64,000 nt of DNA. Source: an uncultured Thermoleophilia bacterium. GTDB lineage: Bacteria > Actinomycetota > Thermoleophilia > UBA2241. Location of the stretch: assembly GCA_963702475.1 (NCBI GenBank), contig CAVPCT010000005.1, positions 288,001-352,000 on the forward strand, written 5' to 3'. Under the pieces are notes generated by a model that ran no database searches, was not told where the DNA came from, and was given only the letters and a program-made list of their open reading frames with translations. The translations under genes were made by a program, and so were the position numbers. Numbering within the stretch: the stretch's first letter is position 1; each line of letters starts with the position of its first letter. Positions 43,687 to 54,023 of this stretch are shown here, one piece after another.

Positions 43687-45156
43687 TCAGCCGACGCCGT
43701 GCCGGCGGTCGGCCTCCGCGACGATCGCACGCATCTGCGCGGCGACGTCGGGGTCGACGGGCTCGCACCGGTGTGACTCGAGCAGCTCCAGCGCCCGCTC
43801 GCGGGCGCGCTGCGCCAGGTCGGTCGAGCCCTGCGCCTGCCAGTCGTCGCGCACGCGACGGTCGAGCAGGTCGGAGCGGCTGAGGTCGCGCATGTGGCGC
43901 AGCGTGGAGTCGAGGGAGAGGAAGTCGCCGGACGAGCCGACCGCGGCGATGTCGTCCGCGGCGAGGCTCTCTTCGTCGACGCGGACGCCACCCACGGCCA
44001 TCTTGATCATGTGGGCGATCTCGTCGTCCATGACGAGCTGGCCGAAGTCGAAGGCCACGCCCGACTCGATCATCCCCGCACCGTAGATCTGGTTGGCCCC
44101 TGCCAACGCAGCCAGCAAGCCGGTGAGGGTCTTCTCGTGCCCCGCCTGGGCGTCGCCGAGCTTCGCGTCCGTCTACAACCCCGCCACGAAGCTGGGGAGG
44201 CCGTAGCGCCGCGCCAGCTGCGCGACGGCGGCGCTGATCACGGCGAGCTCGGGCGAGCCGACCGCGGCGGTGGCGAGTCTGAGGTCCATCGCGGTGGTGG
44301 ACGACCCGTAGACCATCGGGCACCCTCGCTCGGTGAGCTGCGCCAGCACGATGCTGCCGAGCACCTCGGCGTTGTGCGTCACCAGCGTGCCCGCCAGCGT
44401 GACCGGCGACGAGCCGCCGGCCATGGCCATGCTGACGACGGTGTTGGACATGCCGGAACGCGCCGCCTCGATGATGACCTCGGTGGCGTCGCGCGGCAGC
44501 TGCAGCGGGCTGACGGGGCACACGCCGAAGCCGACGAGCGGGCGGCGACGCAGCTCGTCCTCGCCGCCCGCGAGCACCCGGGCCATCGCCACGATGGCGC
44601 GCACGTCCTCCGCCGTCGTCGCCTCGCTGCCCACCGGCTTGGTGGTCTCGTGGACGGCCTCCTGCCACTTGTGCAGGCTGGCGGTGGCCGCCGGGACGTC
44701 CTCCGCTCCGACCGCCGACTCGTAGGCGTCCATACTGTCCAGGGCGTCGACCAGACGCGCCACCTCGCGCACGTCCCCGATGCCCGGTTTGCGGTACTCC
44801 CCCGTGCGCGGGTCGACGAGCATGATGCCCTCGTCGAAGTTGGAGAAGTGGACGCTGCCGGCCTCGAGCACCACGTCGTCAGCTGGGTCGCGGCCGCACA
44901 GGTGGACGGCTGGCGGACACGCGGCCACCGCGTCCTCAACGATGTGCGGAGGGATGCGCACCGTGCGCGACCCGCGGTCCACGCGACAGCCTCCGTCGGC
45001 GAAGAGGTCGAGCGGCTCGTCGTCCTCCACGAACAGGCCGGTGCGCTCCAGGACCTCGAGCGTGGCGAGGTGGATGTGGTCGATGTCGGCTTCGCTGAGG
45101 ACGTCGAGCCTCAGACCCGGGCTCCCCGGCCGGCCGGACTGCAGCGGGCGTTTCAC
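43687..45156 (-). CDS. mttB: Trimethylamine:corrinoid methyltransferase with in-frame amber (pyrrolysine, codon 328); 489 aa with read-through
   Basis: MttB fold throughout; LPSFVAGL-TAG-TDAKLGDAQAGHEKTLT...AGANQIYGAGM matches the Pyl-containing MttB motif; TAG at 44173-44175; same frame continues to TGA 43687. Confidence 0.93.
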
Positions 45157-45205
45157 GGAGCGCCTCCCTCGTGGTCGGTGGTGGTGAGGTGAGCAGCCGC
45201 GCCGG

Positions 45206-46711
45206 TCACGCGCGCGCCGCCTCGTCGGCGGCGGCCACGAGGCGACGCAGCTCGCGCTGCGCGTCGTCGCCGAGCGGCTCCGGCCGGTAGTGGTCCAAGA
45301 TGTCCCCGGCGCGCTCGCGCGCAACCTCGACGGCGTCGCGGAAGTGGCGCCCGTCGGCGGCGACCTCCTGCGTGATGGCGCGCACCACCGAGGTACGCAT
45401 GTGCCGCCGCGTGTGCACGTGGCCGAGGAAGTTGCCGCCCGGGCCGACCGCGGCGATGGCCTCGAGAGCGAGCGCCTCCTCGTCGGCCGCGACGTCGAGG
45501 AACGCCGCGCGGGCGCGGTGGTAGAGGTCGTCGTCCAGGATCAGGTCCTCGGGCGCGAACACCGTGAAGGTGCCGTGCAGACCGATACCGGTGTAGGTCT
45601 CGCAGCCGTCCAGCGGGAGCTGCAGGAGCTGCGAGGCCTGTTCCACGCCGTGCTGCCAGGTGCCGGGCTCGGTGGCGTCGGTGCCGCCGAAGGCGCCCAG
45701 CGCCGGCAGACCGAAGGCGTGCAGCAGCTCGGTCGCCAGGAAGCGGCAGCGGTCCTCGAGCGGCGCGGACAGCGTGAGCGCGCTCCGCGGGTCGGCGTAG
45801 CTGCTCATGATCGACCCCCACACCGGCGCGCCCGGCGCCGCCAGCTGGTGGAGCACGGCGGCGGCCACGATCTCGGCGGCGCCCACCACCAGGGCGCCGG
45901 CCGGCGTGGCCGGGGCCGTGGTGCCCAGGGTCGGCATGGTCACGTAGCACACGGGGATGCCGGCCTCCGCGAACACCAGTCCGGCGCCGGTGCCGTCGTC
46001 GTCGAGGACGAGCGGCGACACCGTCCCGATGAGGTCGCTGAGCGCTGAGGGAGCGCCGACGCCGCGTGCGTCAGCGACCACAGCGGCCATCTCCACGGCG
46101 CAGCGCGCCAGCGTCTCTCCCTGCACCATGCCCATCAGGTGTTTGGTCGTGTTGTTCCAGCCCGCCTCGAGCTCGTGCACCTGCGCGGCGGGGCCGCAGT
46201 CGCCGGCGCCCACAGTGGGCCACCAGAACGCGATGGACCCGAGGTAGTCCTGCATGCGCGTGACGCCGGCGAGGTCGGCCTTGGTGGACGGGCGCGGCTC
46301 GCCGGTGTGCCGGTCGACGACGTGGGTGCCGCTGCCGTCGGTGGTGCCGTAGGTCTCGCCGGAGGCGAGATCCAGGTCGGTGAGGCCGTCGCGCGAGCCC
46401 AGCACGAAGGTGCGCGGGGCGAGCGCCAGCGACTCCTGGACGAGCCGGCGCGGCAGCCGCACGAGGCCGGAGGCCTCGTCCACGTCCGCGCCGGCCTTCG
46501 CGAACAGCTTGAGGCCCTTGCGCGAGCGGCACTTGACGCCGGTGCCGGCGAGGACGGCGAACGTCGCGTCCAGGTACGGCACCAGCCTCTCCGCGTCGTG
46601 CACCTGCAGGCGGAACTCGGACCGCAGGGGCGCCAGCGGCTGCCTGCGCAGCCGCTGGGCGCCCGGCGCCGTCACGCCCGACGGTCCGGCGTCGGTCGCT
46701 CCGGCGCTCAC
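45206..46711 (-). CDS. MttB-superfamily methyltransferase (non-pyrrolysine)
   Basis: AGADVDE..GLVRLP...LALAPRTFVL, VSPL, LGTTAPATPAGALV; AFGGTDA at the Pyl-equivalent site. Confidence 0.88.
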   Translation of the reverse strand: MSAGATDAGPSGVTAPGAQRLRRQPLAPLRSEFRLQVHDAERLVPYLDATFAVLAGTGVKCRSRKGLKLFAKAGADVDEASGLVRLPRRLVQESLALAPRTFVLGSRDGLTDLDLASGETYGTTDGSGTHVVDRHTGEPRPSTKADLAGVTRMQDYLGSIAFWWPTVGAGDCGPAAQVHELEAGWNNTTKHLMGMVQGETLARCAVEMAAVVADARGVGAPSALSDLIGTVSPLVLDDDGTGAGLVFAEAGIPVCYVTMPTLGTTAPATPAGALVVGAAEIVAAAVLHQLAAPGAPVWGSIMSSYADPRSALTLSAPLEDRCRFLATELLHAFGLPALGAFGGTDATEPGTWQHGVEQASQLLQLPLDGCETYTGIGLHGTFTVFAPEDLILDDDLYHRARAAFLDVAADEEALALEAIAAVGPGGNFLGHVHTRRHMRTSVVRAITQEVAADGRHFRDAVEVARERAGDILDHYRPEPLGDDAQRELRRLVAAADEAARA

Positions 46712-48120
46712 CGCGGCACCGCCCCTCTGCGCGTCCTGACCAGGGAGCTGCGCTCACGGAACCGGTCCACGCAGTTGATGGGCAGGTCGAGAAGGTCGGC
46801 GATGTTCATCTTGGCCTCCATCGCCGTCGCGGCACCCGGGAACGGGGCCTCGGAGTCGATGATCCTGCCGAGGCCCAGCTCGCCGCGGACCTCCTGCATC
46901 GCCACGCAGTCGGAGAGGTCGGCGATGCTCACGCCGAGCCTCTCGGCCACCACACGCTTCGCCTCCGGGAGCCGCAGTCCCCGCGTCATCTGCATGCGCG
47001 CCACCAGGTCTCCGGCGGCGCGTAGCCCGTTCATCCCGCAGGCTGTCGCGTGAGCGCTGGGCATCCCGAAGATGTCGCCTGTACCCACCTACAACCCGTC
47101 CACGCGCAGCAGATCGACGAAGGCGCGCCCCACACGCGACACGGCGTCCACGGGCGGGCAGACGCTCATGGGCACGCCGCCGACCCCCATCCCGGCGTTG
47201 ACGTGCACGGGGATGCTCGCTGCGGCCACGCAGGGCTTGAGGATCGTGGCCGCGCGGGCCACGTTCCAGGCCACGGAGTGCGTGGTGTTGACGTTGACGC
47301 AGGGGCCGAAGATGGTGGCGCCGGCCTGCTCGACCACGCGCAGCTGGTCGTGAGGCCACAGGCCGGCCAGGCGCACGCCGTCGAACTCGAGCCGCCCGTG
47401 CATCCCCAGCACGAACTCGGAGGCCATGCCGACCTCGATGCTCATGGTGGGGAAGTCGCGGCGCAGCGCGCGCACCACCTCGAGCACGGCCAGGAACTCG
47501 GCGTCGCCGGCCGCGCCGCTGGTGTCGAAGTCCAGACCGTCGGCGCCGGCCTCCCAGAGCCTCTCGGCGACGTGGCGCATGTCGGCGGTCGCGTAGGCGA
47601 CCGCCGCCTCCTGCGCCTCACGCGCCTCGTCGGCACGGCCCTGCGGCAACAGCTCGGACCAGTTCGGCACGGGGCCGTCCGGCATCGAGTACCGCCCGAG
47701 GTCGGCCTGCGACCCGTAGTGCAGCGGCATCGTGAGCCGGTGCTGGGCGTCGTGCATGGCCTGGGCCTCGCCGGCGACCACTTTGGCGGCGGCGTTGTAG
47801 CAGTAGTCCTGGTGGAACAGCTCGCCGGAGTCGGCGCCGAGCATCTGCTCGTAGATCACAAGGCCGTCGATGCGCTCGTTCTGCTGCGTGCCGGTGCCGT
47901 CGTAGCTCAGGACGACCTCCTCGCCGATGTCCACGGCCGAGAAGCGCGCGGGAGAGGCGAAGATGTCGAGCAGGTGGTCGAGCTCCGCGGCGTCGAGCGG
48001 CTCGACCTTGGCCCGTTTCGCGCCGAGCGCCGAGCCCTCTTCGAGGTCGGCGCGCAGCTCGGAGCGCGTGAGGTGGACGAGCGCGCCGTCTCCCATCCTC
48101 GTCGGGATCTTCACTTCCAT
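46708..48120 (-). CDS. mtbB: Dimethylamine:corrinoid methyltransferase with in-frame amber (pyrrolysine, codon 344); 470 aa with read-through
   Basis: TRMGDG, FDTSGAAGDAEF, GMASEFVLGMHG, GMGVGGVPM, VDGL-TAG-VGTGDIFGM...RAAGDLVARMQ...EAK; TAG at 47089-47091; downstream TGA overlaps next GTG start. Confidence 0.93.
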
Positions 48121-48306: not shown

Positions 48307-49725
48307 GTGGCGCGTGCGCGCATCCAGTACCTGTCGCCTCGGGAGAGCGACTTCATCCACGAGCAGACGCTGGAGCTCCTGGCGCGAGTGGGCGTCGCCT
48401 ACAACTCACCCAGGGCGCTCGACGTGCTGGAGGCAGCCGGCGTGGAGGTCGACCGGGAGAAGCTCACCGCGAAGCTCGGCTGGGAGGTGATCGAAGAGGC
48501 GCTCCGCACCGTGCCCGGACGAGTGCTGCTGGCCGGGCGGCTCCCCGAGCACGACCGCGTGCTCGGCGACGGCCGGCTGGTCACCACGAGTGACGGCATG
48601 ACCACGTACGTGCTGGACGAGCCCGGCGGCGCCCGCCGCGAGGGCACCGCCGCCGACCTGGCCACCGTCACCCGGCTCTGCGACGCGCTCGACGAGATCG
48701 ACGTGGTGTGGCCCTCGCCGCAGGCCGGCGACGTGGACGCCTGGATGATGCCGCTGGTGATGCAGGCGACGGTGGTGCGCAACACCGGCAAGCACGTGCA
48801 GGACGAGGTACGCACCCCGGAGATGGTCGAGCCGATCCTGGCGGTGTACGAGGCGGCCGCGGGCGCGACGCTGCGCGAGCGCCCGGTGTTCTCGGTGACG
48901 AACTGCACGATCGCGCCGCTGCAACACGACCGCGAGATGACGGAGGCCGGCCTGGAGCTTGCGGCACGCGGCGTGCCCATCTTCGTGCTGCCCATGCCCC
49001 AGGCCGGTACGACAGGGCCCATGACCCTGCTCGGCACCTGCATCGTGCACATGGCCGAGCTGCTCTCGGCGGTCGTGCTCTACCAGCTGGCCGTGCCCGG
49101 CTGCCCGCTCATCGCCGGGGTCGGGGCCGCCGTGGCCGACATGCGCAGCGGCGGCTACATCTCGGCGGCGCCCGAGATCGGCCTCATCAACCTGATCTGC
49201 CTCACGATGAGCAAGCGCTACGGGCTGCTCACGCAAGCCACGGGGATCTCGCCCGACGCCAAGGTGAGCGACTTCCAGGCGGGCTCGGAGGGCGGCATGA
49301 CGGGGCTCGTGGCCGCCCTCGCCGGCGCCGACTCGCTCATCGCCGCCGGCAGTCTGGACGGCGTACAGTGCTCGAGCCTCGCCAAGCTGGTGCTGGACGA
49401 CGACCAGCTCGGCGCCATCCGCCGCTACCTGCGCGAGGACCCCATCGACAAGACGGCGGCGCTCATGGACGACATCCTCGAGGTCGGCATCGGCGGCCAC
49501 TTCCTCGCGCGCCGCAGCACCCGCCACGCCGCGCGCACGGAGGTCTGGCGGCCGCGCGTGTTCCAGCGCGGGAGCTACGCCGAGCTGGCCGGTCGGTCGG
49601 TGGTGCAGGCGGCCGCCGAGCGCGCCGAGGAGCTGCTGGCGACGCACGACGCGCCGCCGCTCGCGCCCGCGGCCGAGGCGGCGATCGCCGAGGTACTGGC
49701 GGCCTGGGAGGCGCGCCGGCCCTGA
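48307..49725 (+). CDS. MttB-superfamily methyltransferase (non-pyrrolysine)
   Basis: IHEQTLELLARVGV, IAPLQHD, AGTTGPMTLLG, DMRSG...APE, TGISPDAK, GIGGHFL. Confidence 0.9.
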   Translation: MARARIQYLSPRESDFIHEQTLELLARVGVAYNSPRALDVLEAAGVEVDREKLTAKLGWEVIEEALRTVPGRVLLAGRLPEHDRVLGDGRLVTTSDGMTTYVLDEPGGARREGTAADLATVTRLCDALDEIDVVWPSPQAGDVDAWMMPLVMQATVVRNTGKHVQDEVRTPEMVEPILAVYEAAAGATLRERPVFSVTNCTIAPLQHDREMTEAGLELAARGVPIFVLPMPQAGTTGPMTLLGTCIVHMAELLSAVVLYQLAVPGCPLIAGVGAAVADMRSGGYISAAPEIGLINLICLTMSKRYGLLTQATGISPDAKVSDFQAGSEGGMTGLVAALAGADSLIAAGSLDGVQCSSLAKLVLDDDQLGAIRRYLREDPIDKTAALMDDILEVGIGGHFLARRSTRHAARTEVWRPRVFQRGSYAELAGRSVVQAAAERAEELLATHDAPPLAPAAEAAIAEVLAAWEARRP

Positions 49726-51066: not shown

Positions 51067-52587
51067 GTGCACGTGGAACTGACGACCGCGAGCCAGACCG
51101 CCGCCCGGAGCCAGGGCCTCAAGCGCACCAGCGTCCGCCTTCTCACGGTGTTCTTCATGATCTACATCCTCGTCTCGGGCGGGTCGTTCGGCATAGAGGA
51201 CATGGTGTCATGGTCCGGCCCGGGCCTCACGATCCTGCTGCTCATGGTGCTGCCGATCGTCTGGAGCTTGCCCATGGCGCTGGTCGCGAGCGAGTTGGGG
51301 TCGGCGCTGCCCGGCGAGGGCGGCTTCTACATCTGGGCGCGGCGCGGGCTCGGCGACTTCTGGGGATTCCAGACCGCCTGGTGGTGGACCCTCTCCATCT
51401 TCGTGGACTCGTCGGTCTACGTCGTCCTGGCCGTCGGCTACCTGCAGAACTGGCTGGGCTTCGGACAGCTCTGGTTCTACGTCACCTGCTGGGCGATCAT
51501 CGCCGTGTTCACACTCGTCAACGTCTTCGGGGTCAAGCTGGTGGCACTCAGTTCGACCGTCTTCTCGGTGCTGATCATCGCGCCGTTCCTCGTGCTGATC
51601 GTGGTCGGCCTGGCGAAGTGGCAGTTCAACCCCCTGACGCCGGTGACGCCGCCGGGCGTACCGTTCTTCGGCACCAACGGCGCCCTCGGCCTCGGGCTGG
51701 CCATCGGCGTGTGGATGTACTCCGGCTACGAGTCCATGTCCACGCTTTCGGGAGAGATCCGCGATCCCCAGCGCGTGATCCCGCGCGCGCTCCTGCTCGC
51801 GGTGCCGTTCATCATCGCCATGTACGTGCTGCCCACGGTGGCCGCCCTGGCCGGCTACGGCCAGTGGGACATGTGGGCGACAGACGCCGGCGACGGCTAC
51901 GTCTCGTTCGTGGAGATCGGCAGGGCCCTCGGCGGCTCCGCGCTCGGCGTCGCGCTGCTGGCGTCGGCCCTGCTCGGCAACCTGGCGCTGTACCTGGACT
52001 ACCTGGCCTCGGGCGCGCGCCCACTCTTCGCACTCTCTACCGATCGCCTCTTCCCCGCCGCGGCGTCTCGCGTCAGCAGGCGGTTCGGTACGCCGGTCGT
52101 GGCCATCCTGCTGATGGCCGGGCTGAACGCCGTTCTCATCGTCGGACCGTTCCGGAACCTGGTGGTGATCGACGTGATCCTGTTCACGGCGTCGTACGTG
52201 CTGATCTTCATCGCCGCGGTCGCTCTGCGCGTGAAGGAGCCCGGGCTAAGAAGGCCGTTCCGCGTGCCGCTGGGGACAAAGGGCATGGCGCTCATGGTGG
52301 CACCGCCCATCGCCATCGTGCTCTTCACGATCTACGTGAACGCCATCGACCGCAGCACGGAGATCCTCGGCGTCACCGGCTTCCGGGTGCTGGGCATCGA
52401 CGTGGGCTGGTACGGCATCGGCGGCTTCCTCGCGCTGGCCTCCGGACCGGTGTGCTACCTGGCCTTCCGCCGCGCGTTCGGCGGACCGGCCACGCCGGCG
52501 GCGCAAGCCGGCGACGACGAGCTGGCGGCGCTCGCGGCGGCCGCCGAAGACGGGGACGACGAGGCCGGCCCAGGAGCGCTCGCATGA
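51067..52587 (+). CDS. APC-family amino acid/amine permease
   Basis: About 12 hydrophobic helices; SGGSFGIED, SELGSALPGEGGFYIW, YSGYE, GEIRDP, RPFRVP; start may be 51073. Confidence 0.9.
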   Translation: MHVELTTASQTAARSQGLKRTSVRLLTVFFMIYILVSGGSFGIEDMVSWSGPGLTILLLMVLPIVWSLPMALVASELGSALPGEGGFYIWARRGLGDFWGFQTAWWWTLSIFVDSSVYVVLAVGYLQNWLGFGQLWFYVTCWAIIAVFTLVNVFGVKLVALSSTVFSVLIIAPFLVLIVVGLAKWQFNPLTPVTPPGVPFFGTNGALGLGLAIGVWMYSGYESMSTLSGEIRDPQRVIPRALLLAVPFIIAMYVLPTVAALAGYGQWDMWATDAGDGYVSFVEIGRALGGSALGVALLASALLGNLALYLDYLASGARPLFALSTDRLFPAAASRVSRRFGTPVVAILLMAGLNAVLIVGPFRNLVVIDVILFTASYVLIFIAAVALRVKEPGLRRPFRVPLGTKGMALMVAPPIAIVLFTIYVNAIDRSTEILGVTGFRVLGIDVGWYGIGGFLALASGPVCYLAFRRAFGGPATPAAQAGDDELAALAAAAEDGDDEAGPGALA

Positions 52588-54023
52588 GGGCGCGGCTCGA
52601 GATCCTGACCGCCGGGGAGCGCGCCCAGGTCCACGAGCGCACCCTGGGGGTGCTCGAGCGGACGGGGATGCGCTGCGACTCGATCGAGGGTCGCCGGATC
52701 CTCGCCGACGCCGGCGCCCGGGTGGACGAACACACCGGCGTCGTGCGCTTTCCGGCGGTGCTCGTCGAGCAGGCGCTGGCGCAGGCGCCGAAGGCGTTCA
52801 CGCTCGGAGGCCGCCGTCCCGGCTGGAGGTTCGCCCTCTGTGAGGGCGAACAGACCCTGCTCGCCGACGGCGGCGCCACCGCCGTGTTCGACAGCGCGAC
52901 CGGCGAGCGACGGCCACCGACCCGCGGCGACTGGCTGGCGGCCACGCGCATCCTCGACGCGCTCGACGAGGTCGGCCTCTACTGGTGCCCGACGGACTAC
53001 CCGGCGGACTACGAGCGCGCCGGCGGCTTCGTGCGCTACTACGCGGACGCGTTCGCCACCTTCGGCAAGCACGTACAGGACTCGTTCGGCACGCCCGAGC
53101 TGGCGCCGTGGCTCGGCGAGGTCCTCGAGGCGGTGTTCGGCGGCCGCGCGCGCGTGCGCGACCTGCGGCCGCTCTCGTTCCTCATCACGCCGGCCTCTCC
53201 GCTCACCATCGAGCGCAACTACACGGACTCGTGGCTCGCGCTGCGGGACTACCGGTTGCCGGTCGCCATCATGCCGATGCCGCTGCAGGGGGCGACGGCG
53301 CCGGGCAGCCGGCTGGGCACCCTGCTGGCCGCCAACTGCGAGACCCTGGGCACGCTCTGTCTGGTGCAGGCCGCGGCGCCGGGCACGCCCGTCATCTACG
53401 CGCCGGTCGTGGCCACGATGGACCCGCGCACCGGGCTGTACGCCGCCGGCGCCGTGGAGCACGCCGTGCTCTGCGCCGCCGGCACGGAGATGGCCCGGTT
53501 CTACGGCCTGCCGGCCGAATCCTCGGGCTTCTGCACGCAGACCCACGAGCCTGACCTGCAGACCGCCTGGGAGAAGGCCAACGGCGCCCTGCTCGTCACG
53601 CTCTCCGACCCCGACATCCTGGTCGGGCCGGGGCTGCTGGCGGGCGCGACGGTGCTGTGCCTCGAGCAGCTCGTGCTCGACGTGGCGGAGTGGCGCCTGG
53701 CACGCCAGGCGCAGACGGGCATCCCGGTGCGCGACGACCTCTGGCTCGACGACGTGCTCGACCGCGTCGGGGCCGGCGGCTCGTTCCTCTCCGCGCGCTC
53801 CACGCGTGCCAACGCGCGCGGGGGCGAGGAGTGGCGCCTCGGCGACCTCGGCTTCCACGGCAGCCACGACGCGTGGCGCGCGGCCGGCGCGCCGACGACG
53901 CTGCAGTACGCGCGAGAACGTGTCACGGAGATCCTCGCCGCGCACCAGCCGGTGCCCTTCGACGACGACGTCACCGCTGCGCTCGCGGAGCTCCAACGGC
54001 GGGCCGACGCAGCCGACGCGTGA
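52584..54023 (+). CDS. MttB-superfamily methyltransferase (non-pyrrolysine)
   Basis: VHERTLGVLERTG, GVVRFP, ASPL, GATAP, DPRTG, EMARFYGLP, QTAWEK; ATGA overlap with the permease. Confidence 0.9.
   Translation: MRARLEILTAGERAQVHERTLGVLERTGMRCDSIEGRRILADAGARVDEHTGVVRFPAVLVEQALAQAPKAFTLGGRRPGWRFALCEGEQTLLADGGATAVFDSATGERRPPTRGDWLAATRILDALDEVGLYWCPTDYPADYERAGGFVRYYADAFATFGKHVQDSFGTPELAPWLGEVLEAVFGGRARVRDLRPLSFLITPASPLTIERNYTDSWLALRDYRLPVAIMPMPLQGATAPGSRLGTLLAANCETLGTLCLVQAAAPGTPVIYAPVVATMDPRTGLYAAGAVEHAVLCAAGTEMARFYGLPAESSGFCTQTHEPDLQTAWEKANGALLVTLSDPDILVGPGLLAGATVLCLEQLVLDVAEWRLARQAQTGIPVRDDLWLDDVLDRVGAGGSFLSARSTRANARGGEEWRLGDLGFHGSHDAWRAAGAPTTLQYARERVTEILAAHQPVPFDDDVTAALAELQRRADAADA

Follow-up and report, generated by a model that had tools for sequence, protein, structure and literature searches.

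That the P-site codon and its tRNA, together with the last residues of the nascent peptide, affect the decoding of stop codons is classical Escherichia coli work from the 1990s. In later reports, synonymous changes to the two codons upstream of UAG alter suppression by the pyrrolysine (Pyl) tRNA, tRNA-Pyl, in mammalian cells (PMC8216290), a 64x64 context screen shows a strong influence of the codon preceding TAG on incorporation through tRNA-Pyl (bioRxiv 10.64898/2026.04.16.718949), and termination defects vary with the P-site tRNA isoacceptor (bioRxiv 10.1101/2024.05.29.596377). For natural Pyl codons, the closest described elements are the PYLIS cis-RNA regions, 100-nt segments counted from the Pyl UAG (RF01982 PYLIS_1 in mtmB, RF02509 PYLIS_2 in mtbB and RF02510 PYLIS_3 in mttB; PMC3639795), two of which are matched in the DNA analysed here. 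Three papers disagree on whether PYLIS matters for insertion (PMC3639795, PMC12626013, bioRxiv 10.1101/2024.09.30.615893); Have et al. 2013 describe mttB as lacking significant structure (PMC3639795), and according to the other two neither a widely conserved sequence cue nor a validated mechanism is known for the choice between stop and Pyl (PMC12626013, bioRxiv 10.1101/2024.09.30.615893). Here we describe a 64,000-nt stretch of DNA from an uncultured Thermoleophilia bacterium (the window), in which the methyltransferase genes mttB and mtbB each carry an in-frame amber codon directly preceded by the leucine codon TTG, and we compare this codon and two downstream hairpins with those of bacterial relatives.

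Both ambers are genuine pyrrolysine codons, in a bacterium that carries the Pyl machinery. The trimethylamine methyltransferase gene mttB (43687..45156, (-); PF06253) contains one in-frame TAG at 44173..44175 (-), corresponding to residue 328 of the frame as translated. Read through, it encodes a 489-aa protein matching PF06253 at 316.9 bits (E 2e-94, cut-off 25), and in an alignment with M. barkeri MttB the TAG falls on its Pyl residue (Pyl334; PDB 7XCM, ...vagSkSdak...). The dimethylamine methyltransferase gene mtbB (46708..48120, (-); PF09505) likewise contains one in-frame TAG, at 47089..47091 (-) (residue 344), and its 470-aa read-through product matches PF09505 (Dimeth_Pyl) at 535.6 bits (E 1.1e-160), above the cut-off; here the TAG sits in a D-G-x-O-x-G-x-G-D motif common to 77 loci of other genomes. 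The source genome (G000; 4.3 Mb, 70% GC), whose contig C5 carries the window at 288001-352000, holds a tRNA-Pyl(CUA) gene (contig C3, 641046), a PylS C-terminal domain (314.6 bits, curated cut-off 178.15) and PylB (438.1 bits, curated cut-off 348.2), as well as 75 MttB, 5 MtmB and 16 MtbB family matches, many with one in-frame TAG. UAG also terminates roughly one in seven of its long open reading frames (ORFs; 420/2404, or 404/3089 once read-through-like cases are removed, gene calls being heuristic ORFs), and the cell must therefore read one codon both as stop and as pyrrolysine. Peatland Actinobacteriota have been reported to express Pyl-encoding mttB and mtbB (PMC10805028).

The leucine codon preceding UAG

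The codon directly upstream of TAG (position -1) is TTG in both window genes, at 44176..44178 (-) in mttB, where it occupies the P site while UAG is in the A site, and at 47092..47094 (-) in mtbB. Within G000, 26 Pyl-position TAGs occur in mttB, mtbB and mtmB copies (two additional TAG rows that are not Pyl sites were left out), and the 17 with leucine at -1 comprise 16 TTG and 1 CTG; in mttB, every -1 Leu codon is TTG or TTA (7/7). The non-Leu codons at -1 are GCG, CAG, ATG, TAC and TTC, and GGG stands at -2 in 15 of the 26.

Comparison across genomes extends this pattern to three families. The mtbB gene is present in only 2 of the 401 genomes of a phylum-wide sample, and in the second of these (62% GC) both copies read GGG TTA TAG. 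A larger set came from scanning one genome per species with protein patterns located far from the Pyl site: the best 80 of 572 relatives gave 77 distinct loci, covering Thermoleophilia and other Actinomycetota, Spirochaetota, Dehalococcoidia/Chloroflexota, Aminicenantes, delta-/Proteobacteria and Firmicutes. Their -1 codon is TTG in 72, TTA in 2 and CTG in 3. With the copies of the source genome and of G089 added (86 rows from at least six phyla, in which L001 and L075 are one gene), the column holds 77 TTG, 4 TTA, 4 CTG and 1 TTC. Across 19 further conserved Leu columns TTG appears only 1-8 times per column, and it amounts to 6.3% of all other Leu, and the -1 column is the strongest synonymous outlier among the 236 conserved columns tested (G 330). 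On a maximum-likelihood protein tree it requires 6 codon changes, versus 15-28 in 18 other Leu columns. The preference persists over a range of GC content at third codon positions (GC3) from 0.33 to 0.99; among low-GC genes (GC3 <= 0.65, n=14) TTG is found at -1 in 13 and CTG in 1, and there TTG makes up 18% of other Leu, so that codon rarity is not the point.

For mttB, a pattern with the -1 codon left free was scanned over 50 genomes, and 150 of the 202 resulting rows were listed. In the 49 genomes besides G000 (135 listed rows, counted by hand), leucine at -1 is encoded by 62 TTG, 2 TTA and no CTN; the other listed rows comprise 68 Ala GCG codons and 3 others, one of them probably spurious. 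The -1 codons of 30 retrieved mttB loci agree with this count. The mtmB genes of 7 other genomes carry only TTG (5 genomes) or TTA (2 genomes) at -1. Pyl-free paralogues serve as a control: those with Leu in the -1 column use CTC, CTC and CTG (MttB) or CTC (MtmB), and the Pyl-free MttB-family gene lying between the two window genes (45206..46711, (-); PF06253, 171.5 bits) lacks TAG, TTG and hairpin alike at the matching columns. Moreover, TTG makes up just 3-6% of the Leu codons that precede TAC, TAT, TGG, TCG, TTC or TGC in G000, which means that the preference is not explained by the T or TA that follows. Together, these comparisons indicate that the -1 Leu codon is under site-specific purifying selection tied to TAG-bearing genes and not to Pyl-free paralogues. 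In the sequences compared, whenever the residue before Pyl is leucine the codon is almost always UUR (R, purine) and not CUN, across three methylamine methyltransferase families and several bacterial phyla. Bacterial Pyl sites would thus display two regularities, a purine at nt -1 and UUR over CUN when the residue is Leu.

These results redraw the boundaries of a longer match around the two ambers. The sequences ttCGTGGcgGGGTTGTAG (44188-44173, (-); mttB) and cgCGTGGacGGGTTGTAG (47104-47089, (-); mtbB) agree at 14 of 16 positions, and the first-pass annotation of this DNA took the match for a nucleotide context marking which UAGs are read through. What survives of that proposal is one codon (TTG/TTA) and the purine at nt -1; the 16-nt motif does not. 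Its remark that GGG-TTG stands directly before both TAGs, against a norm of GGC and CTC/CTG, is confirmed. In 2404 long G000 ORFs selected by their GC-by-position pattern, GGC makes up 66% and GGG 18% of Gly, CTC and CTG together 92% and TTG 3.2% of Leu, and GGG-TTG accounts for 128 of 9395 Gly-Leu pairs (1.4%); two independent occurrences by chance are very unlikely. It was also correct in tracing part of the match to the shared V-x-G-L residues: the CGTGG portion, formed by Val GTG and a codon beginning with G, is protein-forced or coincidental, and the -4 codon of mtbB orthologues is variable (commonest CTC 19, CTG 15, TGC 14, GTC 9 and GTG 7; n=86).

The two codons of the GGG-TTG pair behave differently among orthologues. 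Varied Gly and Leu codons before the amber had been named in advance as the observation that would speak against a signal, and such variation is found for Gly (23 parsimony changes in mtbB) and barely for Leu (6). The -2 codon of mtbB (47095..47097, (-)) is GGG in 40, GGC in 32, GGT in 12 and GGA in 2 orthologues, and its number of changes is comparable to that of other Gly columns (12-32); therefore GGG at -2 is not constrained in mtbB. At the corresponding codon of mttB (44179..44181, (-)), GGG is enriched and not fixed: where -1 is Leu, GGG occurs in 50, GGC in 11, GGA in 3 and GGT in 0 of 64 rows (hand count, among the rows listed).

The wider repertoire of the source genome is notable for a hugely expanded MttB superfamily (about 15 of its 75 matches having a TAG at the Pyl position), two further members of which lie in the window at 48316-49701 (+) and 52530-54002 (+). 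The genome also has 7 mtbB genes of full length, in addition to fragments, and its mtmB genes comprise 1 of Pyl type and 4 that are Pyl-free. Some mtbB/mttB copies are split or contain an extra TGA or TAG (C5:362180-363436, C7:37364-38577, C4:76-1430 and C5:363540-365009) and are probably pseudogenes or assembly breaks; they retain TTG TAG at the Pyl site. A tRNA-Sec(UCA) gene lies at C3:167171-167268, and from its gene content the source bacterium appears to employ the 21st as well as the 22nd amino acid.

Hairpins downstream of the amber codons

Each of the two families also keeps its own small hairpin downstream of the amber through compensatory changes. In mttB, the GTTGGC-aggg-GCCAAC hairpin noticed in the first-pass annotation is located at 44092..44107 (-), with its 5' end 68 nt past the first base of TAG. 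It forms a 6-bp stem, G-UUG-GC / GCC-AAC, closed by an A-GGN tetraloop and spanning codons +22.3 to +27.3 (codon and position within it). The covariation check proposed at that stage supports it, as it does the mtbB hairpin described below. Specifically, GCA is found in 36/36 and TTG in 31/38 high-GC rows, and in each of the 7 rows with CTG, AAC is replaced by AGC or GGC, which restores the pair. Pair (23.1,27.2) is formed in 47/47 rows (UA 40, CG 7) and pair (23.3,26.3) in 47/47 (GC 42, AU 4, GU 1), and the loop is AGGN in 46/47. Overall, 96.1% of cells are paired, a value reached by 0/500 shuffles (38 rows, including the spurious locus L148), and the fold has an energy of -12.5 kcal/mol (z -2.81). 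Among Pyl-type mttB copies of G000, all 6 pairs are present in 11/15 and 5 pairs in 4/15; none of 40 Pyl-free MttB paralogues in that genome has all six, and their loop codon is GCC instead of GCA. Several atypical codons after the ambers had been pointed out in the window, and of these TTG(+23) and GCA(+24) of mttB are part of its conserved hairpin; GGT ACA of mtbB and GCT and TTG(+19) of mttB are not conserved.

The mtbB hairpin (46995..47024, (-); codons +22.2 to +32.1) has stems of 5 + 7 bp and an A-GAY tetraloop at 47011-47008. It coincides with a second hot spot in the mtbB synonymous scan, codons +25 to +29 (GCY GGA GAY CTG GTG), where GGA at +26 occurs in 86/86 rows and CTG in 84/86. 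In the same 86 rows, pair (23.3,30.3) is CG 32, GC 28, AT 6, TA 3, GT 3 and TG 2, and pair (24.3,29.3) is CG 45, TG 15, GC 11, TA 6 and AT 3. A second count of pair (23.3,30.3) gives CG 30, GC 25, AU 6, UA 3, GU 3 and UG 2. Among 80 distinct rows, 94.4% of cells are paired, with 59 double-change cells versus 22.5 in shuffles (0/500 reach this number), and pairing falls to 32-46% in slid registers; the fold has an energy of -22.6 kcal/mol (z -4.14). An internal Shine-Dalgarno sequence with a GTG restart site, considered as a reading of GGAGAYCTGGTG in mtbB, is ruled out by the third-position covariation, which marks a hairpin.

Both genes match Rfam PYLIS models from the UAG onward, mttB at 44076..44175 (-) with PYLIS_3 (RF02510; 70.3 bits, gathering 38, E 2.3e-13) and mtbB at 46992..47091 (-) with PYLIS_2 (RF02509; 63.2 bits, gathering 36, E 6.4e-14). 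The PYLIS_2 consensus includes the mtbB hairpin, and the structure line of the PYLIS_3 consensus is without the covarying mttB hairpin. For mtmB, 2 of 7 loci score above and 5 of 7 below the gathering score of PYLIS_1 (RF01982).

Counted from the first base of TAG, the mttB hairpin begins at 68 nt and the outer stem of the mtbB hairpin at 67 nt, and the structures span about 66-96 nt. At this distance, factor tethering, mRNA stability when the region is untranslated, or an effect on Rho are possibilities, and we commit to none of them. The tetraloops at 47011-47008 and 44101-44098 (both (-)) are of the same A-G-R-N type, in unrelated genes and at a similar distance from UAG. The first A of each is a free third position that is essentially invariant. 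The common tetraloop could point to a shared trans-acting partner.

Candidate mechanism and competing explanations

The explanation that best accommodates these observations combines genuine Pyl codons, a TTG/TTA codon and purine before TAG, family-specific hairpins, and a UUR codon acting in the P site; taken as a whole, it has in our judgement about an even chance of being correct. The UUR codon would act from the ribosomal P site while UAG fills the A site. There, either the codon itself or the peptidyl-tRNA-Leu(UUR) could shift the competition between release factor 1 (RF1) and Pyl-tRNA toward insertion; alternatively, the codon might steady the ribosome while UAG is slowly decoded. A further layer of modulation, different in each family, would come from the hairpins. 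Our best guess, inferred from the conservation pattern, is that UAG decoding is biased by the P-site codon or by tRNA-Leu(UUR). A bolder formulation is put forward tentatively, as somewhat more apt to fail than to hold: the P-site UUR Leu codon would be a bacterial cis determinant that tips UAG from RF1 termination to Pyl-tRNA, recruited convergently in three non-homologous families, where it might itself have favoured Leu at -1 (Val or Ser in M. barkeri), and, with the A-G-R-N hairpins ~70-95 nt downstream, would constitute the first sequence-specific signal separating Pyl UAGs from true UAG stops. A context screen in E. coli reports Gln and large hydrophobic residues as favourable upstream neighbours for one monomer (bioRxiv 10.64898/2026.04.16.718949), and this list resembles the natural -1 residues found here (Leu, Met, Gln, Tyr, Phe). 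The full range of natural -1 residues at Thermoleophilia Pyl sites is Leu, Met, Gln, Tyr, Phe and Ala. Extended codon-anticodon pairing was considered and is rejected, as positions 37 and 38 of tRNA-Pyl are A and cannot pair with the G at nt -1.

Several observations weigh against the explanation favoured here. Two papers hold that Pyl is inserted without the help of a cis element (PMC12626013, bioRxiv 10.1101/2024.09.30.615893). Thermoleophilia include mttB subfamilies with Ala (GCG in 68/68 of the Ala rows listed), Gln, Met or Tyr at -1, and mttB of Spirochaetota, Chloroflexota and delta-proteobacteria has Gly (GGA/GGG) or Thr there; the survey of mttB in other phyla used a loose pattern, whose control matches were about as many as the real ones, and was judged by eye. 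One Eubacteriales mttB gene in it reads GGT TTG TAG. In M. barkeri, solved structures place Val (MtmB1) and Ser (MttB) before Pyl; these residues are the archaeal data, and the DNA comparison covers bacterial genes, a protein search for archaeal genes having yielded just close N-terminal fragments (327-365 aa). Four mtbB genes with CTG at -1 look intact. Most sequences come from related Thermoleophilia metagenome-assembled genomes and paralogues, and raw counts overstate independence. The hairpins lie too far downstream to contact a ribosome whose A site is on UAG. Finally, one tRNA-Gly reads both GGT and GGC, and a constraint on GGT versus GGC at -2 of Ala-type mttB therefore acts on the mRNA.

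The Ala-type genes themselves read GGT GCG TAG in 64 of the 68 listed rows of other genomes, GGT making up about 9% of Gly codons; before TTG in mttB, GGT occurs in 0/64 listed rows. G000 holds Ala-type copies at C6:933-968, C7:36688-36723 and C4:179940-179975. Codon usage in these genes shows purifying selection on GGT at -2, tied to TAG-bearing genes like that on the -1 Leu codon and the hairpins, and part of the signal must reside in the mRNA itself.

That last point leads to the rival account in which the -1 TTG belongs to an RNA structure or other mRNA-level element, for example local pairing around UAG, with no P-site tRNA effect. Hairpins fully explain the rare downstream codons (TTG and GCA of the mttB hairpin), selection of GGT over GGC at -2 of Ala-type mttB must act on mRNA, and the single-sequence minimum-energy fold of the window mtbB pairs CGGGUUGU (window 47098-47091, with codons -2 and -1 and the first base of UAG) with ACAGCCUG (about 47047-47040, (-)), ~45 nt downstream. 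In the alignment, however, the ACAGCCUG partner is not conserved among orthologues, the RNAalifold consensus leaves the -1 codon essentially unpaired, and the 4 CTG and 4 TTA exceptions have no compensating column within 60 codons on each side. The exception scan, the consensus fold and the single-sequence fold thus reveal no conserved pairing partner of the mtbB -1 codon, and one codon recurs in three unrelated gene contexts; we regard a purely structural origin as unlikely. A rare-codon pause or a regulatory-tRNA checkpoint of the bldA/TTA kind, in which a rare TTG slows or gates the ribosome one codon ahead of UAG, would fit the low share of TTG among Leu codons of G000 (3.2%), the likewise minor codons GGG, GGT and GGA at -2, and the one tRNA-Leu(CAA) gene found in that genome. 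It is improbable nonetheless, given that low-GC mtbB genes, with TTG at 18% of other Leu, still have it at -1 in 13/14, that the constraint is confined to one position, and that GCG, the codon used for Ala at -1, is not rare.

The remaining rival invokes no selection upstream of UAG and attributes the pattern to shared V-x-G-L residues, to common ancestry or transfer of Pyl genes, and to avoidance of the tetranucleotide CTAG. Its elements are real in part: CGTGG is indeed chance or protein-forced, many rows are paralogous or come from close relatives, and avoidance of CTAG accounts for the low number of NNC codons before TAG (nt -1 is C in 20% of cases at terminal TAG and in 52% at TGA; CTCTAG occurs 92 and CTGTAG 551 times). 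Such avoidance nevertheless predicts CTG, 14x commoner than TTG, and not TTG. Neighbouring synonymous sites are saturated, unlike the -1 column, CTC or CTG is the choice of Pyl-free paralogues, and the preference spans phyla and GC3 from 0.33 to 0.99; this account is disfavoured by these data and, in our view, very improbable. Terminal TAGs, proposed in the first-pass annotation as a control, proved unreliable: they are preceded by TTG in 6, CTG in 20 and CTC in 4 cases, and TGA by TTG in 3/151. The apparent general TTG-TAG link is set aside: 5 of these 6 TTG cases have an antisense codon signature afterward and low-complexity C-termini, and the excess is treated as a probable ORF-calling artefact from which no conclusion is taken. 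The ORFs seemingly ending in TTG TAG (C1:229607, C3:445283, C5:605016, C5:1046250 and C5:30830) are probably shadow ORFs, TTGTAG complementing C-TAC-AA of an opposite-strand gene. GGG TTG TAG at C3:479334 was likewise dismissed as an extra Pyl gene, its frame being repetitive and antisense-like.

Significance and relation to known systems

Pyl genes and PYLIS regions were already known; the conserved upstream UUR codon is apparently new, and a literature search found no published statement on a conserved codon before the Pyl UAG. As a cue for the choice between stop and Pyl, this single upstream codon is a concrete candidate, since it withstands strong GC pressure in several phyla and in three gene families that are unrelated. 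It could help to annotate Pyl genes and to design sequence contexts when the genetic code is expanded with tRNA-Pyl. Should it have no effect on decoding, a very strong synonymous constraint would still call for an explanation.

Compared with PYLIS, the window shares the downstream regions, and differs in that the Rfam models begin at UAG, so the -1 TTG is outside them. The likeness to stop-codon context effects is that the codon 5' of the stop alters the competition between release factor and suppressor tRNA (PMC8216290, bioRxiv 10.64898/2026.04.16.718949); those are laboratory effects in engineered systems, whereas here natural Pyl genes keep the upstream codon. With the bacterial selenocysteine insertion sequence (SECIS)/SelB system, the Pyl genes share a coding-region mRNA hairpin 3' of the recoded stop, kept by synonymous constraint. 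SECIS begins ~11 nt past UGA and has an elongation factor of its own that binds it. The mttB and mtbB hairpins, in contrast, begin 66-69 nt after UAG, away from the immediate 3' position of SECIS, and the additional cue is an upstream codon; to our knowledge, no dedicated factor has been described for these Pyl hairpins. Finally, the tRNA-Leu(UAA)/TTA system of bldA in Streptomyces resembles the present case in using a rare UUR Leu codon in particular genes of a high-GC actinobacterium. The bldA effect rests on rarity, without need of a fixed position, whereas the Pyl-site codon is fixed at one position and is retained in low-GC phyla where it is common.

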